From Oscillospiraceae bacterium (GTDB taxonomy: Bacteria > Bacillota > Clostridia > Oscillospirales > CAG-272), in NCBI GenBank assembly GCA_015064415.1, contig SVSG01000002.1, forward strand, positions 76,246-140,245: 64,000 nt of DNA, given 5' to 3'. The notes beneath the pieces are model-generated. The model searched no databases. It was not told the DNA's origin and saw only the letters and a list, made by a program, of their open reading frames with translations. Made by a program: the position numbers and the translations under genes. Of this stretch, positions 44,623 through 62,092 are shown in pieces (within the stretch, counting starts at the first letter, position 1; every line of letters starts with the position of its first letter).

Positions 44623-45921
44623 ATGAAAATCGGATTTGCACGCCTTGACGTCACGCCTCCCAAGGGGACGTGTATCGCCTCGCGCTATTTTTACTTTGTG
44701 CCCGCAGAAGGGTGTCTGGATGCGCTGGAGCTCAACGCGCTGGCCGCCTCGGACGGGGAGAACGTCGCCGTGATCATTGCCGCAGACTTCGGCGGTATGA
44801 CGCAAAAATACATGAATTTGTTCCGCGCTCGCGTCAGCGAGCGCACGGGCCTTCCCGTGGAGCAGATCTTCATCACCACGTTGCACCAGCACACCTCCAT
44901 CGTGGTGTCCGACCCCGCTGAGTCCGACACGCCGATGTGTGACCCCGTGGTCTTGGAATGGCTGTACCGCAAGTTCTGCGACGCGGCGGAGATCGCGATC
45001 GAGGATATGAGCGAGGCGACCATGCTGGTGGGGGCAGAGAAGACCGCTGAGCAGATCACCTTTATCCGTCGTAACGATAAGGTGGAGGATCCCACGGCGC
45101 CCGACGGACATCGCTTCGTGTCCTACGGCCCCGAGCCCGATCAGAACGTGTACGTGGCGCGCTTCGTGCGCGAGGGGAAGAAGGACGTGGCGCTGGTCAA
45201 CTTCGGTACGCACCCCGACGTGGTCAATGAAAAGTCCTTCTCAAACGACTGGCTGGGTGCCACCCGCCGCTTTGTGGAGGGGGATATGCCGCAGGTGCAT
45301 TGTATGCTGCTCAACGGCTTCCAGGGAGACGTCAATCATTTCAATTATTATACCGCGACCGCAGAGGAGCGCAAGCTGATGCGAGGTCATACGCATGCCG
45401 CCAAGATGGGGCGCGTGATCGCGGATACCGTGGAGAAGATGTGGGAAAATCTTGTGCCGTGTGATGCTCAGTTTGTGAAAACGCAGACCGATATGGTCTA
45501 TACCCGCACGCGCACGGATGGCATCGAGCGTTACGATGAGGCGAAGGCGTACTGCGAGGCATATAAGCTGGATCATCACGCCAAGGGGCCGATGGGGATC
45601 GCCGAGGCACAGCGCATTGTGGAGATCCGCGAGAGCGCGCCGATCTATCAGAAGATCCCCGTTTGCACCATTGAGCTCGGCGGTCTTTTGATCGCGGGCA
45701 TCGGCGCGGAGCCCTTTACCAAATACGGCTACGCCATCCGCGCGCTGGCGGGGGACAAGGCGCTTGTCATGACGGCGTGCCTGATGAATGGGTACGAGTG
45801 CTATATGCCGCACACCGACGATTTCCAAAAGCGGGATTACGCCGTGACGCGCAGCCGCTTTACCCCCGCCCTTTTTGGTGAGACGATGGCGGCCTTTGAA
45901 GGGATGCTGCAAAATAAGTGA
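44623..45921 (+). CDS. Ceramidase-like putative metallo-amidohydrolase, paralog P1 (most divergent copy)
   Basis: ATG 44623 after AAGGAG. MKIGFARLDVTPP, LHQHTS, THPD, QGDVNH, AEPFT, NGYECYMP. Lacks the GGYE motif (RDYA instead). The track N-terminal extension runs through the terminator/promoter. Confidence 0.85.
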   Translation: MKIGFARLDVTPPKGTCIASRYFYFVPAEGCLDALELNALAASDGENVAVIIAADFGGMTQKYMNLFRARVSERTGLPVEQIFITTLHQHTSIVVSDPAESDTPMCDPVVLEWLYRKFCDAAEIAIEDMSEATMLVGAEKTAEQITFIRRNDKVEDPTAPDGHRFVSYGPEPDQNVYVARFVREGKKDVALVNFGTHPDVVNEKSFSNDWLGATRRFVEGDMPQVHCMLLNGFQGDVNHFNYYTATAEERKLMRGHTHAAKMGRVIADTVEKMWENLVPCDAQFVKTQTDMVYTRTRTDGIERYDEAKAYCEAYKLDHHAKGPMGIAEAQRIVEIRESAPIYQKIPVCTIELGGLLIAGIGAEPFTKYGYAIRALAGDKALVMTACLMNGYECYMPHTDDFQKRDYAVTRSRFTPALFGETMAAFEGMLQNK

Positions 45922-45973
45922 TGCTTAAAGAATGCTTTTTGCGTGAAAAAGGACATTAATCTGCTTTTTTTTG

Positions 45974-45982
45974 TGGTATAAT
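45974..45982 (+). promoter_or_regulatory. Extended -10 element (TGgTATAAT) ahead of the MBL lipoprotein gene
   Basis: TGGTATAAT 45974-45982. No good -35 hexamer. GGAGG 8 nt before ATG 46014. Confidence 0.45.
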
Positions 45983-46013
45983 GAAGGCAATCATATCAAG
46001 GGAGGATATCTCA

Positions 46014-48386
46014 ATGAAAAAAACGAGAATACTCAGCTTTTTCTTGGCTATTCTGATGCTTTGCTCCTGTGGGGTGCTGCTGGCTTCCTGCGGCGGCGAT
46101 GGCGGTATTGAGATCAGCAACGAGCAACAGAGCGTGGATCTGAGCAAATTTTCCATTTATTACAGCGACGATCTGCAGGAAAACAACGTTTTTCGCGATA
46201 TGGCAACGCTTCTGGCGCAGGCCGTGAGCGCAAGAACGGGCAAGGCGATCACCGCAAGAACCTTTGATAAGGCGCCTGCCGAGGCGGATCAGCCCGAGAT
46301 CCTGATCGGTAATACGTCGCGTGCGGAAAGCGTGAACGCGCTGGCCTCTGTGGACGGCGACGGCTTTGCCATTTACACAAGCGAAAATAAGATCGCGATC
46401 ACGGGCAGCTCCAAGATGTTCACGATGTATGCGCTTTGCTATTTCTTCAACAATTATTTCAGCGGGGAGGGCAACGGCGCGACCGTGACGCTGCCTGTCG
46501 AGATCCACGCCGATGAGGTTCCGCTTGTGCCGCTGGCAAATAAGGACGGCTATGCGGTCTCCTTCGTGTACGGCGCGGATCTGAACGATTCTACCAAGTA
46601 TACCGGCGCCCCCGGTGTCAGCGGTACCGGCCACGACCACCGCGATTATCCGTTTGCTGCCGTGGAGAATATCGTGAATAAGCTTTCCGATATGGCGAAG
46701 CTTGGCAAGCGAGGCGTGACGAAATACAAGGACTCTACTGCCGCCGCGGGCGCGGAGTTTATGGTGGGCATCGTAGAGCGCGAGCCCGTAAAGCAAGCGC
46801 TTTCCAAGCTGAAGGGAAGTGAATATTGCTTCTGTGTACAGAACGGACAGATTTATATGACCGCGTGGAACGATGCCGCGCTTGCGGCTTGCTATACCTT
46901 TGTGGAGGGCTTTCTGGAGATCGCCGCGATCACGGCAGAGGATGGCAGCGTGACGGTCGCCTTGCCCGAGGGCTTTACGTTGTTTGGCAACGGCAACCCC
47001 GCGTGGGTGACGGATTTCCCCAAGCCCGACGGCCTGCAGCTTTATAATACGTTGGATACCGCAGAGAATTCCTTGCAGTATCTTTACCTTGGCGAGGGCG
47101 TGAGCGCGGAGGCCTTCCGTGCCTACGGCGAGAAGCTGAAGGGGGAGGGGTACACCGTCCTTGCCGAAAACGAGATCGAGGAAAGCTTGTTCGCCACCTT
47201 TGTGAACAAGGAGGCGGGCCTTATGATCTACGTGGCGTACAATGCCTACGCGCACCAGAGTGAGTATGCCCACAAGTACGAGCGCGCGCTGCGCGTGGTG
47301 GTCTGCCCCACAAGCACGCATGCCGTACCGGATGCTGCGATCCTGAATGCCAATCAAAACTATAAAAAGGTGACCGACACCGCCGTGACCCAGATCGCGC
47401 TGGAGAAGGGCTACGTCGGTATGAGCTACGTGATCACGCTGGAGGATGGGCGCTTTATCATCTTTGACGGCGGAAAGACGGGTAGCGGCTCCCTGGCCGC
47501 AGATCATCTTTGGGACGTACTCAATGCCTCGTATAAACGGATCTACGGCAAGGAACCCACGAAGAACGATCCCGTACGCGTGGCGGCCTGGGTCATCACA
47601 CACTCTCACGGCGACCATTACAACGTGGCAAAAAGTTTGCTGAAAAATTACGGTGCCAGCGGTTTGCTTGATCTGGAGTATCTGATCGGCAACTATCCCT
47701 CCAAGTCCGCCGTATGGCCCATATATAACGCTGACATCGGTATGATGACGGAAGAGGGTACCATTGAAAGTCTGCAGCGGGTGACGGATTTCACCTATCT
47801 GAAGGTGCATGCAGGGCAGAAGTACTATTTCGCCAATCTGGAGATCGAGGTCATCACCACCTATGACGATCTCAATCCCACCCGTGTGCACGTGCAGAAC
47901 GATACCAACACCGTGCTTCGCTTTACCCTCAAAAAGCAGGGCAAGGAGGATTACACGATGCTGTGGTTGGGCGACGCCAACGCCAGACAAAGCCGCTTTA
48001 TGTGTGCGATGTACGGGAATTATCTGAAATCCGATATGGTACAGGTGGCGCACCACGGCAATACGGGCTGTGAAACCGACCTGTACAGCACCGTGAACGC
48101 CCCCGTGGTCTTTTTCCCCAACCGTCTGGAGTCCTATCAGATGTATCTGGATCCCGCCAACAGAAAGAAGTCTGTGCCCTACGAGGTGGATCAGGCACTT
48201 ATCTATGACAATCCCAACACCAAATACGTGTTTGTGGCGCACGAGTATCATACCACGATCCGATTCGATGCAGATAACAAGCCGATGCTGGATCAGATCT
48301 ATGATGGCGTTGCAGGTCCCGAGACGGTGATCGAGTACGTGACCAACGTGCAGATCGGCGGCGCCGCGATCAAGGTCAGAGACTGA
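46014..48386 (+). CDS. Secreted lipoprotein with C-terminal ComEC-like metallo-beta-lactamase-fold domain
   Basis: MKKTRILSFFLAILMLCSCGVLLASC (lipobox LASC). THSHGDH at nt 47601-47618, LWLGDAN, VAHHGN at ~48045-48062. N-terminal ~480 aa unassigned. Confidence 0.85.
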   Translation: MKKTRILSFFLAILMLCSCGVLLASCGGDGGIEISNEQQSVDLSKFSIYYSDDLQENNVFRDMATLLAQAVSARTGKAITARTFDKAPAEADQPEILIGNTSRAESVNALASVDGDGFAIYTSENKIAITGSSKMFTMYALCYFFNNYFSGEGNGATVTLPVEIHADEVPLVPLANKDGYAVSFVYGADLNDSTKYTGAPGVSGTGHDHRDYPFAAVENIVNKLSDMAKLGKRGVTKYKDSTAAAGAEFMVGIVEREPVKQALSKLKGSEYCFCVQNGQIYMTAWNDAALAACYTFVEGFLEIAAITAEDGSVTVALPEGFTLFGNGNPAWVTDFPKPDGLQLYNTLDTAENSLQYLYLGEGVSAEAFRAYGEKLKGEGYTVLAENEIEESLFATFVNKEAGLMIYVAYNAYAHQSEYAHKYERALRVVVCPTSTHAVPDAAILNANQNYKKVTDTAVTQIALEKGYVGMSYVITLEDGRFIIFDGGKTGSGSLAADHLWDVLNASYKRIYGKEPTKNDPVRVAAWVITHSHGDHYNVAKSLLKNYGASGLLDLEYLIGNYPSKSAVWPIYNADIGMMTEEGTIESLQRVTDFTYLKVHAGQKYYFANLEIEVITTYDDLNPTRVHVQNDTNTVLRFTLKKQGKEDYTMLWLGDANARQSRFMCAMYGNYLKSDMVQVAHHGNTGCETDLYSTVNAPVVFFPNRLESYQMYLDPANRKKSVPYEVDQALIYDNPNTKYVFVAHEYHTTIRFDADNKPMLDQIYDGVAGPETVIEYVTNVQIGGAAIKVRD

Positions 48387-48396
48387 CATAAAATAA

Positions 48397-48427
48397 GAAA
48401 AAACACCCGACGTGTTCGGGTGTTTTT
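48397..48427 (+). terminator. Rho-independent terminator (cassette B)
   Basis: AACACCCGA / TCGGGTGTT stem + TTTTT. Confidence 0.8.
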
Positions 48428-48439
48428 CTGCGTTTGGGA

Positions 48440-48468
48440 TTGACACCCCGCGAAAAAGGGGGTATAAT
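48440..48468 (+). promoter_or_regulatory. Promoter of P2-P3 (cassette B)
   Basis: TTGACA 48440-48445, 17-nt spacer, TATAAT 48463-48468. The -10 sits inside palindrome GGGGTATaATACCCC (48459-48473). Confidence 0.6.
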
Positions 48469-48510: not shown

Positions 48511-49820
48511 GTGCTGCAGGCAGGATTTGCAAGAGTGGACGTCACGCCCCCGATGGGCAGCCCCGTGGACGGCTATTTCAAGGATCGCGTGGCGAGAGGG
48601 ATCCTTGACCCCATCGAGCTGAACGCCATCGCATTTTCGGACGGCGAGAAGCGTGCCGTGATGATCACGGGCGATTTTCTCGGCATTGAAATATTCCACG
48701 TGACCAATATCAAGGAGCACGTTACCCGCCAAACGGGTCTTAAAAACGAGGAGATCTTTATCAGTGCTACACATTCGCACACCTCGGTTTTCGTAAGAGA
48801 AAATCCTGCGAAAAATCTGCCGCAGGAGTACATCAATATGCTGTATCGCAAGTTCGCGGATGCGGCGCAGATGGCGCTTTCCGATCTTGCGGATGCCACG
48901 CTTTATACCGCGCAAAAGGAAACCGCCGCGCCGATCGGCTTTGTGCGCCGCTATCGCCTTTCCGACGGGCGCGTGGCGACCAATCCCGGTGCCGCCGTCC
49001 TGCCCCTTGTCACGGGCAGATGTGACGAATCCGACAATACGGTGCGCATTTTGCGCTTTTGTCGCGAGGGCAAAAAGGATATTACGTTGCTGAATTTCTC
49101 CACGCATCCCGATGTGATCTCGGGTGAGTATTATTCCGCCGACTGGCCCGGCTTTGCCCGTCGCTTCGTGGAGGCGGAGCACCCCGACACCCACTGCCTG
49201 CAATTCACGGGCACGGAGGGGGACAGCAATCACGTGGATTTCTTGAAGCCGGAGGAGGAGCGTTTCCCACACGGCAGGGGCTATGCGCACAGCCGCTATA
49301 TGGGGCGGATGCGGTGAATGCCGTGTGGGAGAACATGACCGCGCACGCGGACGGCGCCTTGCAGACAAAGCAGACCTCGGTGTTCGTGAGATCGAACACC
49401 GTCGGTGAGGAAAAGTACGATGAGTGCAAGAAGATGTATACGGATTTTTATGCGGGCAAGCTGGATTACAAGCCCACGGGCGAGCAGTTGGCGTTTGCGC
49501 GCCGCGTGATCCACATCCGCGAGAGTATGGGCATTTACCGCGAGCTGCCGATCGGCGTGATCGGTATTTCGGACGTGCGCATCGTCACCTTTGCGGGCGA
49601 GCCCTTCACCGCCTACGGGGAGAGCGTGCGCGCGCTTGCGGGTGGAAAATTTGCCATCGCGCTGGCATTGACGAACGGCTATCAGGGCTATTTGCCGCAC
49701 GCCCGCGCCTTTGCGGAGGGCGGCTATGAGGCGGCGAACTCGCACTTCACCTCCACGCTACAAGAGCAGGCGATGGAGGCGGTGGAAAACGCATTCAAGG
49801 AAATGGAGAATGGAAAATGA
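48511..49820 (+). pseudogene. Ceramidase-like paralog P2, reading frame broken by a 10-nt deletion (junction 49307|49308)
   Basis: Track ORFs 48511-49317 and 49314-49820 together equal one paralog. P9 reads TATATGGGGCG-CGTGATCGCC-GATGCGGTGAA where P2 reads TATATGGGGCG-GATGCGGTGAA. GTG start after AAGGAGG. Confidence 0.75.
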
Positions 49821-51115
49821 AAGCAGGATTTGGCAGATTGGATATAACGCCCCCCTTGGGCACCCCTCTTGCGGGATATTACGAGCAGCGCCTTGCCGAT
49901 GGCGTGCGCGACCCGCTTTCTCTCAACGCGCTGGCCCTCTCGGACGGGGAAAGCACCGCTGTGATGATCACCGCAGATATGCTGGGCATCCGCCGTACCT
50001 ATTCTGAGGAAATTCGCAATTTAGTGGCCGAACGGGTGGGAATTCCCGTGGATCATGTGATGCTGATGTCCCTGCATCAGCACACCTCGATGCGCCTGGC
50101 GGACGCGTGGGAGCGCAGTGCCGTGACGGACAAAACCTATCTGGACGTTTTTTATCGCAAGGTGTGTGATGTGGCGCAGATGGCGATCGCGGATCTTTCG
50201 GACGCCACCGTGAGCTATGCCGAGCGGGAAACTGCGGAGCCGATCGCGTTCATCCGTCGCTATTTTATGAAGGACGGCAGCGTGCGCACCAACCCCGGCA
50301 AGCACCGCGACGAGGTGGTGGCACCCGTGGGTGAGCAGGATCACAACGTGCGCCTGGTGAAATTTGTGCGCGAGGGCGCGAAAAATATCGCCCTTGTCAA
50401 CTTTTCCACCCACCCCGACACGATAGGCGGCAAAAAGATCTCGGCAGACTGGCCCGGCTTTGTGCGCCGCTTTGTGGAGGAGGATCACCCCGATACGCAT
50501 TGCATTTGCGTGAACGGCGCGCAAGGGGACAGCAACCACGTGGACCCTTGGCGCGAGGGGAAGCAAAGCGGCTATTTCCGCGCGGAGCATATGGGGCGCG
50601 TGATCGCAGATACCGCGAATACGGTGTGGGAAAACGGCGACGTTTGCCATGATGCGAAGCTGTTTTCCGGTGTGAAGCTGGTGTATAATTACACCAACAC
50701 CAAGGGCTCGGAATATTACGACGAGTGCGCCGCGCTGTACTACGGGCATTGGAACGGCGAGCAGGTGCCCTCCAAAACCGAGCACGGCTACAGTCTTGGT
50801 GAGTGCGAGCGCATCGTGAAGCTACGCGAGCGCGGGCAGATCTTCCAATGCGTGCCCGTGAACGTGATCGGCTTCGGCAAGCTGGCATTTGTGGGCTACG
50901 GCGGCGAGCCGTTTCTGCATTATGCGCAAGGCGCGCGCGAGGCGGCGCCCGACAAGCACGTCATCGTTGCCTGCTGTGCCAACGGCTATGAGGATTATCT
51001 GCCCACCGATGCGGCGTTTGACGAGGGCGGCTACGAGGCGACCAGCACCGCCTTCACCAAGGGGCTGGAGCGTGACTGCGTGGCGGCGGCATCCGAGCTT
51101 CTGGCGCAGATCTGA
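49817..51115 (+). CDS. Ceramidase-like putative metallo-amidohydrolase, paralog P3
   Basis: MKAGFGRLDITPP, LHQHTS, THPD, QGDSNH, GGEPF, NGYEDYLP, GGYE. ATG overlaps the stop of the P2 distal frame (ATGA). Confidence 0.9.
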   Translation: MKAGFGRLDITPPLGTPLAGYYEQRLADGVRDPLSLNALALSDGESTAVMITADMLGIRRTYSEEIRNLVAERVGIPVDHVMLMSLHQHTSMRLADAWERSAVTDKTYLDVFYRKVCDVAQMAIADLSDATVSYAERETAEPIAFIRRYFMKDGSVRTNPGKHRDEVVAPVGEQDHNVRLVKFVREGAKNIALVNFSTHPDTIGGKKISADWPGFVRRFVEEDHPDTHCICVNGAQGDSNHVDPWREGKQSGYFRAEHMGRVIADTANTVWENGDVCHDAKLFSGVKLVYNYTNTKGSEYYDECAALYYGHWNGEQVPSKTEHGYSLGECERIVKLRERGQIFQCVPVNVIGFGKLAFVGYGGEPFLHYAQGAREAAPDKHVIVACCANGYEDYLPTDAAFDEGGYEATSTAFTKGLERDCVAAASELLAQI

Positions 51116-51118
51116 GTG

Positions 51119-51148
51119 AAAAAACACCCGATTAATCGGGTGTTTTTT
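51119..51148 (+). terminator. Rho-independent terminator (cassette C)
   Basis: A-run, ACACCCG-attaat-CGGGTGT, TTTTTT. Confidence 0.8.
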
Positions 51149-51158
51149 CGTTTTGGGG

Positions 51159-51187
51159 TTGACACCCCCACAAAAACGCGTTATAAT
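51159..51187 (+). promoter_or_regulatory. Promoter of P4-P7 (cassette C)
   Basis: TTGACA 51159-51164, 17-nt spacer, TATAAT 51182-51187. Inverted repeat TAAAGGTT-at-AACCTTTA at 51193-51210. Confidence 0.6.
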
Positions 51188-51229: not shown

Positions 51230-52552
51230 ATGTTAAAAGCAGGATTTGCAAGATTGGATATGACGCCCCCTTTCGGCTCTCCCCTGGCGGGCTATTATGA
51301 AACGCGCGAAGCGGAGGGCGTGCTGGACCCCGTGTATCTCAATGCTCTCGCGCTGAACGAGGGAGAAAAGACCATCATTGTGATCACCGCGGACGTGCTG
51401 ATCATCCGTATGGACGTGTGCGACACCTTACGCGCCATGATCGAGGAGCGCACGGGTGTGCCCGCCGATCACATTCTGATCAACTCGTTGCACCCGCACA
51501 CCTCGCTGCGTATCGGCGGCAAGCCCGGCCCCGGCACCTCCATCATTACGGACCGTGCTTATCTGGACGTGCTTTACCGCAAGTTCTGCGACGTGGCGCA
51601 GATGGCGATCAGCGATCTTGCCGATGCCACCTATGAGACTGCTGTGCAGCACGCGGTTGCCGATATTTCCTTTGTGCGCCGTTACTTTATGAAGGACGGC
51701 GTGCTTAAGACCAATCCCGGCAGTCACGCCCCCGAGGAGATCGATAGACCCGCGGCAAGATCGGACAATGACGTGCGATTGGTGCTGTTCCGACGCGAGG
51801 GCGTGAAGGATATTGCGCTGGTCAACTTTGCCACCCACCCCGACGTCATCGGCGGCAAAAAGATCTCTGCCGACTGGCCGGGGTTTGCGCGCCGCTTTGT
51901 GGAAGAGGATCACAAGGATGTGCATTGCATCCTGATGAACGGCTTCCAGGGTGATACCAACCATATCAACTTTATGGTGGAAAAGGAAAAGCGCTTCCCG
52001 AACGGCAAGCGCTATCTGCACTCCGAGTATATGGGACGTGTCATTGCCGACACCGTCAACCTGATGTGGGACAAGACCGTGCCCGAGGATAAGACGGGCA
52101 TTTTTGCCGAGGTGAGCTATATTTTCAACAAGTGTAGCACGCGCGGCGAGGAGCATTACGAGGAATGCCATGCCTTCTACGTCAAATATAAGAGTGGGGA
52201 TTACAGCGAGAAGGAAACCAAATCCGGCATCGCGATGGCCGAGGCGTGCCGTATCGCCCGCATCCCCGAGCAGCCCGTGTACCACAAGATCCCGATCACG
52301 GTGCTTGGCATGGGCAAGCTTGCCTTCTTCGGCATCGGCGGCGAGCCCTTTACCGAATACGGATACATCGCCCGTGAGGCATTCCCCGAAAAGTTTGTGA
52401 TGACCGCAACCTGCGCCAACGGCGGCGAGGGGTATCTCCCGAGCCAGCAGGCATTCTCGCAGGGTGGTTACGAGGTGATCTCCTCGCACTTTACCGACAC
52501 GCTGGAAAAGACCGTGATGGATGCATCGCTTGAAATGCTTGGAAAGTTTTAA
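51230..52552 (+). CDS. Ceramidase-like putative metallo-amidohydrolase, paralog P4
   Basis: ATG 51230 after AAGGAGG. MLKAGFARLDMTPP, LHPHTS, THPD, QGDTNH, GGEPFT, NGGEGYLP, GGYE. Confidence 0.9.
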   Translation: MLKAGFARLDMTPPFGSPLAGYYETREAEGVLDPVYLNALALNEGEKTIIVITADVLIIRMDVCDTLRAMIEERTGVPADHILINSLHPHTSLRIGGKPGPGTSIITDRAYLDVLYRKFCDVAQMAISDLADATYETAVQHAVADISFVRRYFMKDGVLKTNPGSHAPEEIDRPAARSDNDVRLVLFRREGVKDIALVNFATHPDVIGGKKISADWPGFARRFVEEDHKDVHCILMNGFQGDTNHINFMVEKEKRFPNGKRYLHSEYMGRVIADTVNLMWDKTVPEDKTGIFAEVSYIFNKCSTRGEEHYEECHAFYVKYKSGDYSEKETKSGIAMAEACRIARIPEQPVYHKIPITVLGMGKLAFFGIGGEPFTEYGYIAREAFPEKFVMTATCANGGEGYLPSQQAFSQGGYEVISSHFTDTLEKTVMDASLEMLGKF

Positions 52553-52564
52553 GGAGAAAAAGAT

Positions 52565-53878: not shown

Positions 53879-53890
53879 GAGGGCGGTGTT

Positions 53891-55210
53891 ATGATAAAGG
53901 CCGGATTTGCCAGGGTGGACGTGACGCCACCCTTGGGGACCCCCATCGCGGGGTATTTCAGCGTGCGCCTTGCCGAAGGGGTGCTGGACCCCATTGAGCT
54001 GAATGCCGTTGCCTTTGGCAACGAGCACGAGAGCGCCCTTTTGATCGCCGCGGATTTTACGGGAATGACGATGGCGCGCATCACGCCGCTTCGCGCACGG
54101 ATCGCCGCTATGACGGGCGTGCCCGCCGAGCGGATCCTCATCACCTCGCTGCATCAGCACACCTCGATCTACGTGGGTGACGAGATCGGTGATGCGGAGG
54201 ATTACGCCATGATCAAGGATGGTGCGTATCTGGATTTTCTGGACCGCAAATTCTGCGACGTGGCAAAAATGGCGCTGTCGGATATGAGCGAGGCACGCCT
54301 TTTGGCAAATGAGGGCGCGACGGAAAAAATGATCGCCTTCACCCGCCGTTACGTGATGCCGGATCGCACGATCCGCACCAATCCCCCAAGCAAATACGGG
54401 GTTCCCGTGCGCCGCACCGAGGCACCGGATAACACCGTGCGCCTGCTGCGCTTTGTGCGCGAAGGGAAGTGCGAGATCGATATTGTGAATTTTTCCACCC
54501 ACCCCGACGTGATCTCGGGCAATCTTCTTTCCGCAGACTGGCCCGGATTTGTGCGCCGCTTTGTGGAAAGCGACCGTCCCGACGTTGCTTGCCTTTGTAT
54601 GGTCGGCTGTCAGGGCGACAGCAACCATCTGGACTTTTTCAAGCCGAAGGAGGAGCGATTCCCCGAAGGGATGGGATATCCGCACAGCCGCTATATGGGG
54701 CGTATGATCGCCGATACCGTCGGCGCGCTTTTGCAGGATGGCACCGAGCACACGGGTGACACCGTGTTTGGCGGTGTGAAGCTGATCTATAACAAGACCA
54801 ACACCGCGGGTGAGGAGTATTATGACGAGGCGGTACAGTTCATTGCCGATTACGAGGCAGGTGAGCCGAAAAAGACCGCGCACGTCACGGATATTGCCTA
54901 CGCCATGCGTGTGCGCCGCCTGTTGACCGCTCCCATTCGCCGCGCCGTGCCCGTCACGGTGCTGGGGATCGGTGACGTGGCCTTCGTCGGCTACGGTGGT
55001 GAGCCCTTTACTCACTACGGCACCGCCGCAAGAGCGGGGGCTGAGGATAAGACCGTGCTTTGCGCGTGCTGTGCCAACGGCTACGAGGGGTATCTGCTGA
55101 CCGAGCAGGCCTTCCGCGAGGGCGGTTATGAGGCCGCGACCTCGCTGTATACCCCCGGACTTGAAAAGCAATGTGTCGATGCGGCACTTACAATGTTGAA
55201 GCAATTTTAA
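53891..55210 (+). CDS. Ceramidase-like putative metallo-amidohydrolase, paralog P6
   Basis: MIKAGFARVDVTPP, LHQHTS, THPD, QGDSNH, GGEPFT, NGYEGYLL, GGYE. Confidence 0.9.
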   Translation: MIKAGFARVDVTPPLGTPIAGYFSVRLAEGVLDPIELNAVAFGNEHESALLIAADFTGMTMARITPLRARIAAMTGVPAERILITSLHQHTSIYVGDEIGDAEDYAMIKDGAYLDFLDRKFCDVAKMALSDMSEARLLANEGATEKMIAFTRRYVMPDRTIRTNPPSKYGVPVRRTEAPDNTVRLLRFVREGKCEIDIVNFSTHPDVISGNLLSADWPGFVRRFVESDRPDVACLCMVGCQGDSNHLDFFKPKEERFPEGMGYPHSRYMGRMIADTVGALLQDGTEHTGDTVFGGVKLIYNKTNTAGEEYYDEAVQFIADYEAGEPKKTAHVTDIAYAMRVRRLLTAPIRRAVPVTVLGIGDVAFVGYGGEPFTHYGTAARAGAEDKTVLCACCANGYEGYLLTEQAFREGGYEAATSLYTPGLEKQCVDAALTMLKQF

Positions 55211-55220
55211 GGAGAAAGTT

Positions 55221-56534
55221 ATGTTACAAGCAGGATTTGCCAGAATGGATATTACCTTGCCGCTTGGCACGGGGATGGCGGGCTATTTTGCCCCCCGTCC
55301 TGCCAAGGGCGTGTTGGACCCCCTTTCCCTGAATGCCATCGCGTTTTCGGACGGGAAGGAAACCGCCGTGATCATCACCGTGGACGCGCTGGGTATGCGC
55401 TATATGTTCTGCGATGAGGTGTGCGCCTTGATCGCGGAAAAGACGGGCGTGCCCGCCGACCACGTGATTTTGAACGCGTTGCACCAGCACACCTCCTTTG
55501 TGATGCGCCCGAAGGGCGGCACGTGTGCTCTGCAGGATCAAAATTACATCGACGTGCTGTACCGCAAGTTTGCGGACGTGGCGAAGATGGCGGTGGATGA
55601 TCTTGCCGACGCGAAGCTTTTGGTGAGCGTGGCACCCGCCACAGCCCCCCTTTCCTTCGTGCGCCGTTACCGTATGAAGGATGGCAGCGTCAAGACCAAT
55701 CCGAACGGGGAAAAGTACGCAGGGCAGATCGTGGGGCCCGCAGACCGGTCGGACAATGACGTGCGCCTTCTGCGCTTTGTGCGCGAAGGGAAGCGCGAGA
55801 TCGCGCTGGTCAACTTCTGCACGCATCCCGACGTCATCGGCGGACATAGGATCTCTGCCGACTGGCCCGGCTTCGTGCGCCGCTTCGTCGAGGAGGAGCA
55901 CGATGCACATTGCATTCTTGTCAACGGCTTCCAGGGCGACGTGAACCACATCAACTTCCAGCTGCCCAAGGAGGAGCGCTTCCCCGCAGGCAGTGGCTAT
56001 AAGCACAGCGAATATATGGGTCGCGTGATCGCGGACACCGTGAATCTGATCTGGGAGAAGGGTGAGGAAAAGGCAGGCGGTGCCGTGCGCGCCGCGCAGA
56101 CCGCCATTTACAACAAGACCCGCACCGACGGGGCTGCGGATTACGAGATCTGCAAGCTGATCTACGACGAGTTTATGAGAACCTTTGAAGTCCCCACAGA
56201 TGCGGCGATCACGGATCTTGCCTATCTGCGCCGCGTGGTGGAGATGCGCGCCGACCCGATCTGGCGCCGCGTGCCCGTGTCCGCCATTGCCGTGGGGGAT
56301 ATTGCCTTTGTGGGTCTTGGCGGCGAGCCCTTTACGCATTACGCAACGGCCATCCGCGAGGGCGCACCGGGCAAAATGGTGATCTCGCTGACCTGCGCCA
56401 ACGGCTTTGAGGGGTATCTGCCCACCGCCGCCGCCTTCCGCGAGGGCGGCTACGAGGCGACGGCCTCTGCCTTCACCCCCGATCTGGAACAGCAATGCGT
56501 CGACGCCGCCGTGGAGCTGTTGAAAATGCTTTGA
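55221..56534 (+). CDS. Ceramidase-like putative metallo-amidohydrolase, paralog P7
   Basis: MLQAGFARMDITLP, LHQHTS, THPD, QGDVNH, GGEPFT, NGFEGYLP, GGYE. Confidence 0.9.
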   Translation: MLQAGFARMDITLPLGTGMAGYFAPRPAKGVLDPLSLNAIAFSDGKETAVIITVDALGMRYMFCDEVCALIAEKTGVPADHVILNALHQHTSFVMRPKGGTCALQDQNYIDVLYRKFADVAKMAVDDLADAKLLVSVAPATAPLSFVRRYRMKDGSVKTNPNGEKYAGQIVGPADRSDNDVRLLRFVREGKREIALVNFCTHPDVIGGHRISADWPGFVRRFVEEEHDAHCILVNGFQGDVNHINFQLPKEERFPAGSGYKHSEYMGRVIADTVNLIWEKGEEKAGGAVRAAQTAIYNKTRTDGAADYEICKLIYDEFMRTFEVPTDAAITDLAYLRRVVEMRADPIWRRVPVSAIAVGDIAFVGLGGEPFTHYATAIREGAPGKMVISLTCANGFEGYLPTAAAFREGGYEATASAFTPDLEQQCVDAAVELLKML

Positions 56535-56541: not shown

Positions 56542-56570
56542 AAAAAGAGAGGGATTTTCCCTCTCTTTTT
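56542..56570 (+). terminator. Rho-independent terminator (cassette E)
   Basis: AGAGAGGG-atttt-CCCTCTCT + TTTTT. Confidence 0.8.
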
Positions 56571-56644: not shown

Positions 56645-57976
56645 ATGTTGAAAGCAGGATTTGCCCGCGTGGACGTCACGCCCGCGCTTGGTACTTATTT
56701 GTCCGGATATTTTGAGGCAAGATATGCCGACGGTATGCTGGACCCCATTCAGCTCAATGCCATCGCTGTGGGCGACGGCGAGGACAGCGTGCTGATCATC
56801 GCCTCGGACTTCCTTGGCATCCGTGAAAACTACGCCACCCGCATCCGCAAGGTGATCGCAGAGCGCACGGGCATCAAGATGGATCACGTGATGGTGACCG
56901 CACTGCACCAGCACACCTCGATCTGCCTGCGCGAGGCGAACGATAACAACGTGTTAGAGGATCACGATTACATGCAGCTGATGTACCGCAAGTTTGCGGA
57001 CGTGGCTCAGATGGCACTTGCCGATATGGCCGATTGCAAGATGACCTATGCCGAGCAGCAGGCGGAAAAGCCGCTTTCCTTCGTGCGCCGCTATATGCTG
57101 TCGGACGGAACGGTCAAGACCAATCCCAACGCCGACAAGATCGGTGATCTGAAGATCCTGGGTCCCACGGAGGATTCGGATAACACCGTACGCCTTGTGA
57201 AGTTCGTGCGCGAGGACGGCAAGAACATCGCGCTTGTCAACTTCTCCACCCACCCCGATGTGGTGGGTGGCACCAAGTATTCCGCCGACTGGCCCGGCTT
57301 CGTGCGCCGTTACGTGGAGCAAGAGCACGAGAACACCCGTTGCATGCTGCTCAACGGCTGTCAGGGCGACACCAACCACATCAACTTTATGCTGCCCACC
57401 AAGGAGGAGCGCTTCCCCCACGGCCGTGGCTACGCGCACGCCGAGCTGATGGGTCGTACCATTGCCAATACCGTGAACACCATCTGGGATAAGACCCGTG
57501 AGGTGGCAGGCGAGGGCATTGGTGCCGGCGTGACCACCGTTTACAACAAGACCCGCACCGACAAGGAGGAGTTCTTTGACGAGTGCTGGGACGTGTACGA
57601 GGCACGCGCGCTCAATCACGATTACAGCGTAAGCAAATCGAAGTCCGGCATCGCGATGGCAGAGGCCTACCGTGTGGTCAAGATCCGCACCGAGTCGCCG
57701 CTGTATCAGAAGATCCCCGTTACCACGCTGCGCGTGGGCGAGATCGGCTTCGTCGGCTTTGGCGGCGAGCCCTTCACCCATTACGCCACCGCCGTGCGCG
57801 AGAACTTCCCCGGCAAGATCGTGATCGCCGCTTGCTGTGCCAACGGCTATCAGGGCTATCTGCCCACCGCCAAGGCGTTCGAGCAGGGCGGCTACGAGGC
57901 GATCAGCTCGCCCTTCAGCCCTGAGCTGGAGAGCCAGTGCGTTGCCGCCGCCACCGAGCTTTTTGAGAAGATCTGA
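56645..57976 (+). CDS. Ceramidase-like putative metallo-amidohydrolase, paralog P8
   Basis: ATG 56645 after AAGGAGG. MLKAGFARVDVTPA, LHQHTS, THPD, QGDTNH, GGEPFT, NGYQGYLP, GGYE. Confidence 0.9.
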   Translation: MLKAGFARVDVTPALGTYLSGYFEARYADGMLDPIQLNAIAVGDGEDSVLIIASDFLGIRENYATRIRKVIAERTGIKMDHVMVTALHQHTSICLREANDNNVLEDHDYMQLMYRKFADVAQMALADMADCKMTYAEQQAEKPLSFVRRYMLSDGTVKTNPNADKIGDLKILGPTEDSDNTVRLVKFVREDGKNIALVNFSTHPDVVGGTKYSADWPGFVRRYVEQEHENTRCMLLNGCQGDTNHINFMLPTKEERFPHGRGYAHAELMGRTIANTVNTIWDKTREVAGEGIGAGVTTVYNKTRTDKEEFFDECWDVYEARALNHDYSVSKSKSGIAMAEAYRVVKIRTESPLYQKIPVTTLRVGEIGFVGFGGEPFTHYATAVRENFPGKIVIAACCANGYQGYLPTAKAFEQGGYEAISSPFSPELESQCVAAATELFEKI

Positions 57977-57984
57977 TCATTTTG

Positions 57985-58110: not shown

Positions 58111-59421
58111 ATGATACAAGCAGGATTTGCCAGAGTGGACGTCACGCCCCCTCTGGGTACGCCGATTTCCGGCTATTTTAACGCGCGCTACGCCAAGGAC
58201 GTGCGCGATCCGTTGCAGATCAACGCGCTGGCCATTGGCAACGGCAGGGAAAGCATACTGATCCTTTCCTTTGACGTGGTCGCCATTGCGCAGAATTACG
58301 CGGACGAGCTGCGCGAGAGGATCTCACAAAAAACGGGTGTACCCGCCTCGCACGTGATGCTGTGCGCCCTGCATCAGCACACCGCGATCTGTCTTGGCGG
58401 GCGTGAGATATTCTGGCCTGTAAAGGACGAGCTGTATCTGCGTCATTTCTACCGCAAGGTCGTGGACGCGGCACAAATGGCCATTGCCGATATGACCGAG
58501 ACACGCGTGTTCACCGCCGAGACACAAACTGCAAAGGAGATCGCCTTCGTGCGCCGCTATTGGATGGCGGACGGCAAGATGCGCACCAATCCCAACACCG
58601 AAAAGCACGGCAAGCCCGTGCGCCGCTGTGACGAATCCGACAACACGGTGCGCCTGATCCGTTTCTGTCGCGAGGGTAAAAAGGACATCGCCTACGTCAA
58701 TTTCTCCACCCACCCCGACGTGATCGGGGGCAGCCGCTTTTCCGCCGACTGGCCCGGGTTTGTGCGCCGTTTTGTGGAGACGGAAAACGATGCGCTTTGC
58801 ATCAGCGTGACGGGCTTTCAGGGGGACAGCAACCACTTGGATTTCTTCAAATCCAAGGAGGAGCGCTTCCCGCACGGCAAGGGCTATGATCACAGCCGCT
58901 ATATGGGGCGCGTGATCGCCGATGCGGTGAAAAAGATCTGGAACGGGGGCACGGAGCATACGGCAGATGCGATCTGCGGTGACGTGCAGACCGTTTATAA
59001 CAAAACCAATACCGCAGGGATGGAATACTATGACGAGGCGGCGCAATACGTCAAGGACTTTGAGGCGGGCATGCCGCAAAAGACTGCGCACATTGGTGAC
59101 GTGGCCACCGCGTACCGCATTCTGGACTTGCGCACAGCACCCTTGTATCAGCCCGTGGTCGTGACGGTGCTGTCGCTTGGTGACATCCTTTTTGCGGGAC
59201 TTGGCGGCGAGCCGTTCACGGCCTACACCCACGCCGCGCACGCGGCGGCAAAGGGCAAAACGGTGTTCTGCTCCTGTTGTACCAACGGTTATCAGGGGTA
59301 TTTGCCGCACAAGCGCGCCTTCGAAGAGGGCGGCTATGAGGTGAGCAATACCTTCTTCACCCCTTCGCTTGAAGCGCAGATCGTGGAAAAAATGGGCGAA
59401 ATGCTGGGGAATTTTGATTAA
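58111..59421 (+). CDS. Ceramidase-like putative metallo-amidohydrolase, paralog P9
   Basis: ATG 58111 after AAGGAG. MIQAGFARVDVTPP, LHQHTA, THPD, QGDSNH, GGEPFT, NGYQGYLP, GGYE. Confidence 0.9.
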   Translation: MIQAGFARVDVTPPLGTPISGYFNARYAKDVRDPLQINALAIGNGRESILILSFDVVAIAQNYADELRERISQKTGVPASHVMLCALHQHTAICLGGREIFWPVKDELYLRHFYRKVVDAAQMAIADMTETRVFTAETQTAKEIAFVRRYWMADGKMRTNPNTEKHGKPVRRCDESDNTVRLIRFCREGKKDIAYVNFSTHPDVIGGSRFSADWPGFVRRFVETENDALCISVTGFQGDSNHLDFFKSKEERFPHGKGYDHSRYMGRVIADAVKKIWNGGTEHTADAICGDVQTVYNKTNTAGMEYYDEAAQYVKDFEAGMPQKTAHIGDVATAYRILDLRTAPLYQPVVVTVLSLGDILFAGLGGEPFTAYTHAAHAAAKGKTVFCSCCTNGYQGYLPHKRAFEEGGYEVSNTFFTPSLEAQIVEKMGEMLGNFD

Positions 59422-59435
59422 AAAAGGGGACTGTT

Positions 59436-60743
59436 ATGATACAAGCAGGATTTGCACGAGTGGATATTACGCCGCCGCTTGGCAGCCCGATGTCGGGGTA
59501 TTTTTACAAGAGATTTGCCGAGGGCGTGCTGGATCCGCTGTCGGTCAACGCGCTTGCCTTCGGCAACGGCGCGCAAACTGCCGTCATCCTTTCCGCCGAT
59601 ATTGCGGGGATGACGGAAAATTACGCGGACGAGGTGCGCGCACTGGTAGAGCAAAGGACAGGCGTGCCTGCCGTTTACGTGATGATCTGCGCATTGCATC
59701 AGCACACCTCCGTGTGCGTGGCACCGAATGGAAATCACGATGCGATCAAGGATAGCGTCTATCTGCATATGCTGTATCGCAAAATGGCGGACGCCGCCGT
59801 GATGGCGGTGAAGGATATGAGCGAGGCGGAGGTCTCCGTCGCCGCAGAGCAGACCGCAGAGCAGATCGCCTTTGTGCGCCGCTACGTGATGCCGGACGGC
59901 ACGGTGGCGACCAATCCTTCCCGCCGCGGCCCCCTGCCCGTGCGCCCGTGTGACGAGCCGGACAACACCGTGCGCCTCATTCGCTTCAAGCGCGAGGGCA
60001 AAAAGGACATTGCCTACGTCAACTTCTCCACCCACCCCGACGTCATTTCGGGCAGTAAGCTTTCCGCTGATTGGCTCGGCTTTACGCGCCGCTTTGTCGA
60101 GGAGGACAATGCCGACGTGCATTGCATCTGCATCACGGGCTTTCAGGGGGACAGCAACCATTGTGACCATCTCACCCGCAACGAGCGCACCCTCTCCCGC
60201 GAGTTCGGCTATCAGCACAGCGAGCATATGGGACGCGTGATCGCAGATACCGTGAAGCGCATCTGGGATCACACCGAGGTGCACACGGGGGAGACGATCT
60301 TCGCCGAAAAGCAGGTCGTTTACAATAAGACCAACACCGAGGGCGAGGAGGAATATGCCGCGCAAAAGGCGTTTTACGAGGATTACGAGGCGGGCAAATT
60401 TGAAAAGCCCCCGCACATCTCGCTGCTCGCACGCGCCAAACGTATCATCAACCTGCGCACCACGGCGCTGTACCACGCGATCCCCATTACGGTACTGGGC
60501 CTTGGGGATCTTGCCTTTGTCGGCATTGGCGGCGAGCCGTTTACCTATTACACCTATGCCACCGTGGCGCTGGCGAAGGGTAAGACCGTGTTCTGCTCCA
60601 GCAACAGCAACGGCTACGTGGGCTATCTGCCGCACGAGCGCGCATACAGCGAGGGCGGCTATGAAACGAGCAGCACCGTGTTTACCAAGGAGCTGCAAGG
60701 TCAGATCCTTTCGACGGTGAAGGATATGTTGGAAAAATTTTAA
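59436..60743 (+). CDS. Ceramidase-like putative metallo-amidohydrolase, paralog P10
   Basis: MIQAGFARVDITPP, LHQHTS, THPD, QGDSNH, GGEPFT, NGYVGYLP, GGYE. Confidence 0.9.
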   Translation: MIQAGFARVDITPPLGSPMSGYFYKRFAEGVLDPLSVNALAFGNGAQTAVILSADIAGMTENYADEVRALVEQRTGVPAVYVMICALHQHTSVCVAPNGNHDAIKDSVYLHMLYRKMADAAVMAVKDMSEAEVSVAAEQTAEQIAFVRRYVMPDGTVATNPSRRGPLPVRPCDEPDNTVRLIRFKREGKKDIAYVNFSTHPDVISGSKLSADWLGFTRRFVEEDNADVHCICITGFQGDSNHCDHLTRNERTLSREFGYQHSEHMGRVIADTVKRIWDHTEVHTGETIFAEKQVVYNKTNTEGEEEYAAQKAFYEDYEAGKFEKPPHISLLARAKRIINLRTTALYHAIPITVLGLGDLAFVGIGGEPFTYYTYATVALAKGKTVFCSSNSNGYVGYLPHERAYSEGGYETSSTVFTKELQGQILSTVKDMLEKF

Positions 60744-60766
60744 TAAGGATAAAGGAGAGTAAAACT

Positions 60767-62092
60767 ATGATTCAAGCAGGATTTGCAAGAGTGGACATCA
60801 CGCCCCCTCTCGGCACCCCCATTTCGGGCTATTTTTACCAGCGTCTCGCTGACGGCGTGCTGGACCCGTTGCAGCTGAATGCCTTGGCATTCGGCAACGG
60901 CGAGGACACCGCCCTGATCATTGCCTGTGACCTGATCGGTATGGTGATGACAAGCGGCAACGAGGTGCGCGCACTGATCTCGGAAAAGACGGGCGTGCCC
61001 GCCGAGCGCATCATGCTGTGCTGTCTGCATCAGCACACCTCCATCCGCATCGGTGATAAGCTGGGGAACAAAGATTACAGCAGCTTTGACGATCCTTCCT
61101 ATCTGTCGATGCTGTACCGTCGCTTTGCAGACGTTGCCAAAATGGCGGTCGACGATATGAGCGAGGCAGTACCTTGCACCGCTGAGGCGCAGGCCGTGCG
61201 CGACATCGCCTTCGTGCGTCGCTACTGGCTGGAGGATGGTACGGTTGCCACCAACCCGTCCAGCAAGGGCCCCAAGCCCGTGCGCCGTTGCGACGAGTCG
61301 GATAATACCGTACGCCTGATCCGCTTTAAGAGAGAGGGCAAAAAGGACATCGCCTACGTCAATTTCTCCACCCACCCCGACGTCATTTCCGGCTGTAAGC
61401 TTTCTGCTGACTGGCCCGGATTTGTGCGCCGCTTCGTGGAAAAGGAGCAGGACGCCCTGTGCCTTTGCGTGGTTGGCTGTCAGGGTGACAGCAACCATTG
61501 TGATTACTTTAAGCCCGCCACGGAAGGCGAGGGTTGTATGTTCCCCGTAGGCAAGCGCTATCCGCACAGCGAGTACATGGGTCGCTCGATCGCGGATACC
61601 GTCGCGCTGATCTGGGATAAGACCGTCGCGCACACGGGCGAGACCGTGTTTGGCGGCTTTGAGGTCGTTTATAACAAGACCAATACCGAGGGCGAGGAAA
61701 AGTACGCCGAGCAAAAGCAGTTCTACGACGATTACGAGGCGGGCAAGTTTGAAAAAGCCCCGCACATCACCCAGCTTGCCTACGCCAAGCGCATCATCGG
61801 ACTGCGCACCTCCCCCATTTACCGTGCCGTTCCCGTCACGGTGCTGGGTCTTGGTGACATTGCCTTCGTCGGCTTTGGCGGCGAGCCCTTTACCGATTAC
61901 ACCCACCAAAGCCACGCGGTGGCACAGGGTAAGACTGTGTTCTGCTCCTGCTGCACCAACGGCTACGAGGGCTATCTGCCTCACGCGCGCGCCTTTGAGG
62001 AGGGCGGCTACGAGGCAAGCAGCTCCTTCTTCACCCCCTGCCTTGAGGAGCAGTGCATCGAGGCAGTTGCCGGAATGGTGAAAAAGTTTTAA
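60767..62092 (+). CDS. Ceramidase-like putative metallo-amidohydrolase, paralog P11
   Basis: MIQAGFARVDITPP, LHQHTS, THPD, QGDSNH, GGEPFT, NGYEGYLP, GGYE. Confidence 0.9.
   Translation: MIQAGFARVDITPPLGTPISGYFYQRLADGVLDPLQLNALAFGNGEDTALIIACDLIGMVMTSGNEVRALISEKTGVPAERIMLCCLHQHTSIRIGDKLGNKDYSSFDDPSYLSMLYRRFADVAKMAVDDMSEAVPCTAEAQAVRDIAFVRRYWLEDGTVATNPSSKGPKPVRRCDESDNTVRLIRFKREGKKDIAYVNFSTHPDVISGCKLSADWPGFVRRFVEKEQDALCLCVVGCQGDSNHCDYFKPATEGEGCMFPVGKRYPHSEYMGRSIADTVALIWDKTVAHTGETVFGGFEVVYNKTNTEGEEKYAEQKQFYDDYEAGKFEKAPHITQLAYAKRIIGLRTSPIYRAVPVTVLGLGDIAFVGFGGEPFTDYTHQSHAVAQGKTVFCSCCTNGYEGYLPHARAFEEGGYEASSSFFTPCLEEQCIEAVAGMVKKF

Follow-up and report, generated by a model that had tools for sequence, protein, structure and literature searches.

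Why would a bacterium keep eleven tandem copies of one predicted hydrolase gene? The question is raised by a 64,000-nt stretch of DNA from an Oscillospiraceae bacterium (GCA_015064415.1, contig SVSG01000002.1, positions 76,246 to 140,245; hereafter the window), in which an array of eleven neutral-ceramidase-like paralogs, numbered P1 to P11, occupies positions 44623-62092 of the plus strand. Our analysis suggests that the block is probably a lineage-specific battery of predicted soluble, cytoplasmic, Zn-dependent deacylases that form part of a short, single-domain branch of the neutral-ceramidase superfamily. The paralogs are 432-443 aa each and 10 of the 11 are intact; residue numbers below are those of P11. 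The copies, in order, are as follows.

44623-45921, plus strand: P1, the most divergent copy, with the seven active-site residues present; orthologs L022_1, L002_1 and L001_1 in related loci
48511-49820, plus strand: P2, disrupted, read as open reading frames (ORFs) 48511-49317 and 49314-49820
49817-51115, plus strand: P3, with a 4-nt overlap with the P2 stop; the sole copy above the Pfam gathering score
51230-52552, plus strand: P4, with P5 the youngest duplicate pair of the array
52565-53878, plus strand: P5, the second member of that pair
53891-55210, plus strand: P6
55221-56534, plus strand: P7, which reads NGFEGYL
56645-57976, plus strand: P8, a predicted monocistronic unit
58111-59421, plus strand: P9
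59436-60743, plus strand: P10
60767-62092, plus strand: P11, the copy used for the AlphaFold2 model

This layout agrees with the original prediction, made by reading the sequence, which had described eleven same-strand ORFs that align end to end, one of them (P2) disrupted and none with a signal peptide or transmembrane segment. The end-to-end alignment has 457 columns and pairwise identities of 38-76%. The closest pair is P4/P5 (76%), P9, P10 and P11 are mutually 58-65% identical, and P1 is the outlier (38-43% to the others). Every copy in the alignment of P1-P11 has the GF(A/G)RxDxT start and the motifs HxHT, HPD, GDxNH and EPF, while GGYE is present in 10 of the 11, with RDYA at that place in P1. 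All of these motifs had been predicted; a further one, NG(Y/G), fails in P7 (NGF). Among the ten intact copies 72 columns are invariant, including G5, F6, R8, D10, T12, H88, H90, T91, R151, R152, H203, P204, D205, D215, W216, Q239, G240, D241, N243, H244, E373, P374, F375, N398, G399, Y403 and Y415. No signal peptide or transmembrane segment was found in P1-P11. The N-termini begin at a conserved M-x-x-A-G-F-A-R-x-D, and the highest 19-residue Kyte-Doolittle mean (1.73, against 2.64 for the neighbouring lipoprotein) falls on predicted buried beta strands. A tblastn search revealed no additional family copy in the rest of the window. The window matches part of a 115-kb JGI metagenome contig, Ga0318466_10003633 (sample 3300031555), at 100% identity. 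Long antisense ORFs also lie over the array (e.g., 51428-55270, 1280 aa); they were rejected as genes, because TTA, CTA and TCA codons are nearly absent and this codon bias (GC3 ~0.75) accounts for them.

To which family do these proteins belong? Ceramidase_alk (PF04734) was the sole Pfam family recurring across the ten copies scanned: P3 scored 38.7 bits, five copies scored 19-27 bits and four had no match, against a gathering score of 32.1 bits. The expectation that hmmscan would return this family was thus borne out for the identity of the match but not for its strength. Two copies scored 17.6 and 22.2 bits with the NCBIfam neutral-ceramidase equivalog NF041649 (cutoff 1200), which matched none of the others. 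PF04734 is known to give many partial matches (PMC4443539). Profile and structure searches gave a clearer answer. A profile made from the ten paralogs matched only neutral ceramidases in the PDB (4wgk, 2e-7), and so did a wider profile of 44 sequences down to 26% identity (4wgk, 8e-24; 2zws, 7e-19). The AlphaFold2 model of P11, built from a 39-sequence alignment, had a pLDDT of 93.7 and a pTM of 0.93. In Foldseek it matched the human enzyme 4wgk (E 6e-25, TM 0.77 over the query) and the Pseudomonas enzyme 2zws (1e-23), with E from 6e-25 to 4.5e-23 and TM 0.67-0.77 over 4wgk and 2zws/2zxc; besides neutral ceramidases, nothing in the PDB was better than E 1e-3 or TM 0.2. The structural similarity by which a reading as ceramidase-like metallo-amidohydrolases was to be checked was found, and the reading is supported. 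By HMM alignment, the active-site residues correspond as follows.

H88 and H90: human His194 and His196; Pseudomonas His97 and His99
R151: human Arg257; Pseudomonas Arg160
H203: human His303; Pseudomonas His204
E373: human Glu540; Pseudomonas Glu411
Y403: human Tyr579; Pseudomonas Tyr448
Y415: human Tyr591; Pseudomonas Tyr460

We take His194, His303, Glu540 and Tyr579 to be the Zn ligands of human neutral ceramidase. On this alignment, H88, H203, E373 and Y403 are predicted to occupy Zn-ligand positions, and H90, R151 and Y415 the positions of the catalytic His, Arg and Tyr. In the human enzyme, which has an extra Ig-like domain, His196, Arg257, Tyr579 and Tyr591 are critical for catalysis (PMC6952831). 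All seven mapped residues are unchanged in the ten intact copies, and H88, H90, R151, H203, E373 and Y403 are unchanged in the 44 sequences down to 26% identity. In the 171 full-length copies from the window and 76 related loci, H88, H90, R151 and H203 are present in 171 of 171, and E373, Y403 and Y415 in 167-170. Judged from the profiles and the model, the array proteins form a short, single-domain, signal-less branch of the neutral-ceramidase superfamily. The shared fold, together with the HxH, Arg, His, Glu, Tyr, Tyr set, makes Zn-dependent acyl-amide hydrolysis the most likely chemistry: a Zn-bound water would attack an acyl amide (or ester) carbonyl, as in neutral ceramidase.

The branch is large. 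A profile search of 1.84 billion representative proteins, clustered at 50% identity, returned 18,307 clusters at E <= 1e-3 and 1,624 at E <= 1e-30. The members are mostly single-domain proteins of 430-490 aa that are named 'hypothetical protein' or, in JGI, 'neutral ceramidase'. The window copies belong with these single-domain 'Ceramidase_alk-like' proteins of Clostridia, Kiritimatiellia and other phyla: the family spans 26-88% identity, is alignable end to end, and shares with the window copies the length (~430-490 aa) and invariant H88, H90, R151, H203, D215, G240, E373 and Y403. The close relatives are exclusively metagenome-assembled genomes (MAGs) of uncultured Clostridia (labelled Eubacteriales, Oscillospiraceae, Faecousia, Vescimonas, Flemingiibacterium or Acutalibacteraceae), and many were recorded from the gut of goat, sheep, roe deer or cattle. 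Within the DNA retrieved for the 76 related loci (designated L and a number), copies were counted by tblastn. The largest tandem arrays have 11 copies (L002), 8 (L001, L005 and L031), 7 (L067) and 6 (L022 and L046); L023, L027, L044, L047, L050 and L051 have arrays of 4-5 copies, and a further relative, L078, has nine. About 46 of the 76 loci have a single copy, and some members of the wider family are secreted or fused to carbohydrate-active enzymes (CAZymes), whereas the window genome has 11 tandem cytoplasmic copies. In the closest relatives the gene order is conserved as FtsK, array, metallophosphoesterase, two membrane proteins and pyruvate kinase, and the copy number at this FtsK-pyruvate kinase position ranges from one or two (L020, L024 and L007) up to 11. 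The copy-number survey proposed in the original prediction thus found that arrays of the family recur, with 1 to at least 12 copies. The architecture is common in this uncultured lineage and not unique to the window genome. The original prediction had named no described system with such an architecture. We likewise found no publication on the short ceramidase-fold branch or its tandem arrays in the literature on the family, PF04734, bacterial ceramidase-like proteins and tandem paralogs, but similar arrays of 4-11 copies are present in many related MAGs.

Have the copies been kept by selection? Best hits and a neighbour-joining tree recovered the ortholog groups P1, P2, P3, P4/5, P6, P7, P8 and P9-11 across several species-level MAGs. 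Identity inside these groups is 66-88%, compared with 38-65% between non-sister paralogs of the window, and the gene order is colinear in two MAGs that have orthologs of the window paralogs. The copies go back to old tandem duplications, and most of them have orthologs of their own in related species. Other lineages form separate clades of their own copies in the tree, which indicates independent expansions of the family. Purifying selection was measured for nine intact copies and both halves of P2. Compared with L077, a conspecific-level MAG (~95-97% nucleotide identity), P6-P11 gave dN/dS values of 0.03-0.13 at dS 0.03-0.20 (0.09 when concatenated); orthologs in other species gave 0.10-0.24, with dS values of 0.6-1.2 that are near saturation. 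Where measured, therefore, the array copies are under purifying selection and are not decaying, and the view of the block as a battery rather than a set of decaying duplicates gains from both the dN/dS range (0.03-0.24) and the paralog-specific orthologs in other species. Across the ortholog groups 58 alignment columns are invariant. Another 30 columns are constant within groups and have at least four different residues between groups; these between-group variable positions fall at 83-96 (which flank HxHT), at 201 and 238, in two helices of the non-alignable central region (312-352), and at 393/397 and 419/421. Such a pattern fits divergence in substrate specificity. The paralogs would differ in substrate, the group-specific positions lying next to the catalytic motifs and within the two central-region helices.

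What, then, might the substrates be? To our knowledge, a single reaction has been linked to the neutral-ceramidase fold to date: the hydrolysis of ceramide by secreted or membrane-anchored enzymes. The array proteins share with neutral ceramidase (human ASAH2, 4wgk; Pseudomonas aeruginosa, 2zws/2zxc; PF04734; EC 3.5.1.23) the catalytic-domain fold and the N-terminal G-x-(A/G)-R-x-D-x-T start, but the sequence identity is just 13-15%. They are ~435 aa long, compared with ~650-690 aa for the solved ceramidase chains, and stop where the catalytic domain ends, without the C-terminal Ig-like domain: the profile alignment reaches about residue 518 of 688 in the 4wgk chain, and no second Pfam domain was found in the array proteins. 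Neutral ceramidase is a secreted or membrane-anchored ectoenzyme, whereas the array proteins lack a signal peptide and membrane anchor. Their central region is ~66 residues shorter and not alignable (query 223-349 versus 4wgk chain 232-424). Leu358-Lys387 and Ala451-Ile487, the elements named as setting the human lipid pocket apart from the bacterial enzyme (PMC6952831), fall in this stretch. Most copies score under the Pfam gathering threshold for ceramidase and all are far under the NCBIfam equivalog cutoff. Judged by the traits that define the family, namely its domain architecture, cellular location, curated score thresholds and pocket region, the array proteins are predicted not to be ceramidases.

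The genomic context and fusions of relatives are carbohydrate-related, unlike the sphingolipid link of neutral ceramidase. In ten loci of other Clostridia a single-copy gene lies directly 5' of a gene for a short Gfo/Idh/MocA-like protein, and overlapping sets of these loci have a cytoplasmic GH78 rhamnosidase, a GH39-like protein, and DUF6528 and Exo_endo_phos lipoproteins as flanking genes; a lipoprotein that reads like a solute-binding protein (no Pfam match) also flanks the single-copy genes there. Genes for AraC-family regulators occur within 10 kb in ten loci, two of which (L031 and L047) have them next to their independent arrays, and an AXE1-like esterase adjoins the arrays of L047 and L050. 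The neighbour c9 (650 aa) matched nothing in Pfam or the PDB. Members of a secreted clade, Kiritimatiellia among them, can be aligned with P11 over their full length (35% identity, E 1e-81). In this clade the ceramidase-fold domain is fused to a GH106 rhamnosidase in P0469, to GH110-type (alpha-galactosidase) barrels and a beta-helix in P0160 and P0470, to a tannase/feruloyl esterase in P0462 and to a GDSL/SGNH esterase in P0157. The tannase-fusion gene lies directly 3' of a GH106 gene and adjoins a Gfo/Idh/MocA gene, and another member of the secreted clade has genes for an M20 peptidase, a sulfatase and a sugar ABC transporter as neighbours. Protein location follows that of the glycoside-hydrolase machinery: cytoplasmic in oligosaccharide-importing Gram-positives, and with signal peptides or as secreted fusions in the Kiritimatiellia-containing clade, which we take to be Gram-negative.

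Given these CAZyme fusions and sugar-utilisation neighbours, we prefer glycan-linked deacylation to ceramide hydrolysis. The likelier substrates would then be sugars or oligosaccharide fragments with N- or O-acyl groups, imported into the cytoplasm, and not ceramides. Provided that the proteins are enzymes, we would put glycan-linked deacylation, by analogy with the relatives, at about an even chance. Deacetylases and esterases of the CE4, CE9, CE11 and CE14 types use a metal-activated water to take an N- or O-acyl group off a sugar. They would have the same role as is proposed here and keep the same company (glycoside hydrolases, esterases and sugar transporters), with an entirely different fold, and we know of no ceramidase-fold member that belongs to a CE family. 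A more specific proposal, which we put forward tentatively and consider less probable than its opposite, is that the short ceramidase-fold family represents unrecognised carbohydrate-active Zn-dependent de-N/O-acylases, a new carbohydrate-esterase-type family, with each of the 11-12 paralogs of this ruminant-gut lineage removing a different acyl decoration from imported plant or microbial glycan fragments. Candidates for such decorations include acetyl, feruloyl-like and unusual N-acyl groups, which might be carried by rhamnose-containing glycans.

A large, uncharacterised sister branch of neutral ceramidase, often cytoplasmic, has been repeatedly amplified into arrays of paralogs under selection in herbivore-gut Clostridia. 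Lineage-specific tandem expansion of an enzyme is a familiar phenomenon; the interest lies in the large uncharacterised family, the present mis-annotation of its members by analogy and the repeated CAZyme link, which could mark out a new carbohydrate-active family. If the branch deacylates glycans, it would be a new enzyme family for the degradation of fibre or microbial glycans, and the 'neutral ceramidase' annotations on some members would need correcting. The ten intact, clearly orthologous paralogs offer a ready set for mapping specificity determinants.

Several observations weigh against the reading of the block as a battery of glycan deacylases. Just one of the ten copies scanned passes the Pfam gathering score. 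The neighbourhood of the array in the window contains no transporter, regulator or glycoside hydrolase; what is conserved there is FtsK, a metallophosphoesterase of generic kind and a pair of membrane proteins without an assigned function. Several single-copy relatives stand in housekeeping surroundings (ruvCAB, aroB/aroA, and genes that are sigma-factor-like by eye or serine-acetyltransferase-like), where a general cytoplasmic role fits as well as a catabolic one. The CAZyme-fused proteins belong to other phyla and share only ~35% identity with the window copies, and their substrate class is carried over to the window by inference: the association with glycoside hydrolases, esterases and sugar transporters is seen in relatives, and the window array is flanked by FtsK, the metallophosphoesterase and RNase P RNA. 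The genes next to and within the array are as follows.

38906-42826: FtsK/SpoIIIE paralog 1, full-length, 1306 aa, with a region of four transmembrane segments
42856-44511: FtsK/SpoIIIE paralog 2, 551 aa, with a short hydrophobic N-terminus (by eye)
45981-48386, plus strand: lipoprotein with a weak metallo-beta-lactamase match, ~790 aa, likely start 46014 (MKKTRILSFF...C)
62256-63167, plus strand: calcineurin-like metallophosphoesterase, cytoplasmic, with its own promoter

The original prediction had placed a metallo-beta-lactamase lipoprotein and a metallophosphoesterase inside the block, and no transporter, regulator or pathway partner. The lipoprotein does lie inside it, but the metallophosphoesterase is just downstream; the window has no transporter or regulator next to the array and gave no hint of a pathway. 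The metallo-beta-lactamase match of the lipoprotein is sub-threshold. The protein has no homolog in the 76 related loci and no PDB relative by sequence, and in L001, L002 and L022, the relatives with a P1 ortholog, the next family copy directly follows that ortholog; the lipoprotein gene therefore looks like an insertion into the array, and it is probably not a functional partner of it. By eye, its N-terminal domain resembles those of the DUF6528 and Exo_endo_phos lipoproteins that flank single-copy family genes elsewhere. The metallophosphoesterase gene recurs at the same place after the array in L002, L004, L025, L077 and L078, as well as in L082 and L083, two near-identical assemblies. A sequence search of the PDB gave no relative of the protein, and its AlphaFold2 model (pLDDT 95) is about equally like purple acid phosphatases, GpdQ, Rv0805 and SMPDL3A (TM 0.54-0.60). 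As a clue to a sphingomyelinase-like function it is uninformative, the fold being generic. The two FtsK/SpoIIIE paralogs upstream are arranged in tandem, and a second ORF of the FtsK cluster beside the first is also found in L022, among the close relatives.

Could the proteins nevertheless be true ceramidases or lipid N-acyl amidases? They would then degrade sphingolipids of dietary plant, host or Bacteroidota origin, or N-acyl lipids of other kinds, on the membrane's inner face, with copies for different chain lengths or head groups and neighbouring phosphoesterases that strip phospho-head groups. Neutral ceramidases are the only structural or sequence relatives of known function, and the mapped catalytic and amide-recognising residues are all kept. 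Genes of phosphoesterase type recur near the family (Metallophos after the array and, as two genes, in L087; the Exo_endo_phos lipoprotein in four loci; and the window's metallo-beta-lactamase lipoprotein), and the GH110 fusion could fit glycolipid trimming too. We nevertheless consider this explanation unlikely. The proteins are cytoplasmic and soluble and no lipid-uptake genes are nearby; the central region that holds the human lipid-pocket elements is shortened and not alignable, the Ig-like domain is absent, and the equivalog scores of 18-22 bits are far from 1200. The partners are rhamnosidases, feruloyl esterase/tannase, SGNH, AXE1-like and GH39-like proteins and sugar ABC transporters, and the metallophosphoesterase fold is generic.

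A small chance also remains with a general cytoplasmic housekeeping amidase, for cell-wall or metabolite recycling or damage repair, whose array would be a dosage or sub-functionalised expansion. Single-copy members do stand in core operons (aroB-aroA, or next to ruvCAB, sigma-factor-like and serine-acetyltransferase-like genes), the array has a conserved core position between FtsK and Metallophos-pyruvate kinase, and its near-consensus promoters look constitutive; no regulator gene lies close by. This explanation accounts poorly for 11-12 diverged copies that are each kept across species and for the repeated independent expansions, and it leaves the CAZyme fusions and sugar-utilisation neighbours of other lineages without account. 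The near-consensus promoters occur throughout the window and hence say little. In L080 (8920-14671) and L081, from another Clostridia lineage, the single-copy gene is part of a shikimate-pathway operon: it lies between the DHQ synthase (aroB) and EPSP synthase (aroA) genes, and after it come genes for a GHMP kinase and a DUF362/ferredoxin protein.

That the array is a set of decaying or neutrally drifting duplicates without a maintained function is very improbable, even though at least two assemblies share the P2 frameshift, an in-frame stop interrupts one L031 copy and the copy number varies within the species. In every pair tested dN/dS was low (0.03-0.24), 10 of the 11 copies are intact with the seven mapped active-site residues invariant, 58 columns do not vary across the ortholog groups, and orthologs in other species are more alike (66-88%) than non-sister paralogs are (38-65%). 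The reading frame of P2 is broken by a 10-nt deletion near 49311 that removes IAD(T/A) codons and leaves the catalytic motifs otherwise intact; P2 orthologs in four other genomes are undamaged at this site. The identical deletion is present in L084, an independent metagenome assembly from another sample (99.99% identical), so that an assembly artefact was rejected and the mutation is real. Both halves of P2 still give dN/dS values of 0.14-0.37 against orthologs, indicating that the loss is recent and that P2 is a recent pseudogene. An apparent internal stop in L022_2 was rejected, being its ordinary stop codon. In L077 (GCA_054279715.1, contig JAZPSO010000438.1) an extra copy at 7725-9038, located between P10 and P11 (window 60743-60767), encodes 437 aa and is 82% identical to P11; the species is therefore polymorphic in copy number, with 11 or 12 copies. 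The P4/5 group has three members in L005. Taken together, the inactivation of P2, the twelfth copy in a conspecific and the young P4/P5 pair demonstrate that gain and loss of array genes are still going on.

Tandem arrays of diverged paralogs in Firmicutes often have immunity or defence roles. A non-catalytic role of this kind, as immunity or decoy proteins against polymorphic toxins or as a defence system, is scarcely credible here: the tandem, diverged, recombining architecture does resemble immunity-gene arrays, such as those reported for type VII secretion system (T7SS) immunity-gene paralogs (PMC9484751), but nearly all of the 171 copies strictly keep the catalytic residues, the proteins, enzymes of 435 aa, are unlike small immunity proteins, the window has no toxin, T7SS or defence gene adjacent to the array, and PADLOC gave no match for P1, P7, P11, the metallo-beta-lactamase lipoprotein or the metallophosphoesterase.

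How might a battery of this kind be transcribed? The array is predicted not to be one operon but about six units: P1, the lipoprotein, P2-P3, P4-P7, P8 and P9-P11. The longer gaps (110-134 nt) hold, in order, a GC-rich hairpin with a T run, a promoter that matches TTGACA-17-TATAAT at 11 or 12 of 12 positions, and a strong ribosome-binding site, AAGGAGG, whereas genes within units are spaced 10-23 nt apart or overlap by 4 nt. The predicted signals are as follows.

~44518-44548: terminator-like hairpin, ends the FtsK-like gene upstream of P1
44557-44585, plus strand: promoter-like TTGACC-17-TATAAT upstream of P1
48398-48428: terminator, GC-rich hairpin and T run, after the lipoprotein gene
48440-48468, plus strand: perfect consensus promoter TTGACA-17-TATAAT of the P2-P3 unit
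~51120-51150: terminator-like hairpin preceding the P4-P7 promoter
51159-51187, plus strand: perfect consensus promoter of the P4-P7 unit
56542-56570: palindromic, bidirectional terminator-like hairpin after P7
56582-56610, plus strand: perfect consensus promoter of P8
57984-58013, plus strand: intrinsic terminator (13-bp stem and T run) after P8
58045-58073, plus strand: promoter-like TTGACT-17-TATAAT of the P9-P11 unit
62096-62129, plus strand: intrinsic terminator after P11
62151-62179, plus strand: metallophosphoesterase promoter

The perfect promoters were considered as a mark of a special array and rejected, as identical promoters occur throughout the window; those outside the array are at 446, 21037, 22512 and 31294 (plus strand) and at 31227 and 63582 (minus strand). 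By their sequence, the consensus promoters are taken to mark real transcription starts that are not specific to the array. No regulator gene was found in or next to the block. Nine perfect 12-of-12 TTGACA-17-TATAAT promoters in 64 kb are unusually frequent, and the intergenic order is often fixed as a terminator hairpin (AAAAAACACCCG...CGGGTGTTTTTT), a consensus promoter and AAGGAGG.

Some observations concern the family at large. Residues 33-138 of P3 weakly match (E 0.005) model positions 421-521, out of 561, of DUF2070, a Pfam family of predicted membrane proteins that may contain a remotely related domain. Two distant relatives have unusual architectures: P0268 (846 aa) has two ceramidase-fold domains fused in tandem and the motif variant GGTHNHNG, and P0163 (569 aa) combines an N-terminal HTH_3 DNA-binding domain with a ceramidase-fold domain.

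Across the window, Rfam identified nothing but the following RNA.

63222-63574, minus strand: RNase P RNA, bacterial class A, 243 bits, with a perfect consensus promoter at 63610-63582

A 2726-aa ORF at 1742-9922 (plus strand) had no Pfam match at E <= 1e-4 and may encode a giant protein of unassigned family; the opposite strand is also open over this span (1685-9937, minus strand, 2750 codons), and the codon-usage score favours the plus strand. A BNR_2/Asp-box (sialidase-like beta-propeller) protein without an obvious signal peptide is encoded at 36775-37920 (minus strand). The remaining genes are housekeeping genes (NAD synthase, carbamoyltransferase, DegV, RecG, PNPase, M20 peptidase and PGA_cap), and agmatine-deiminase-like and carbamate-kinase-like genes, read by eye, lie beside the carbamoyltransferase gene.

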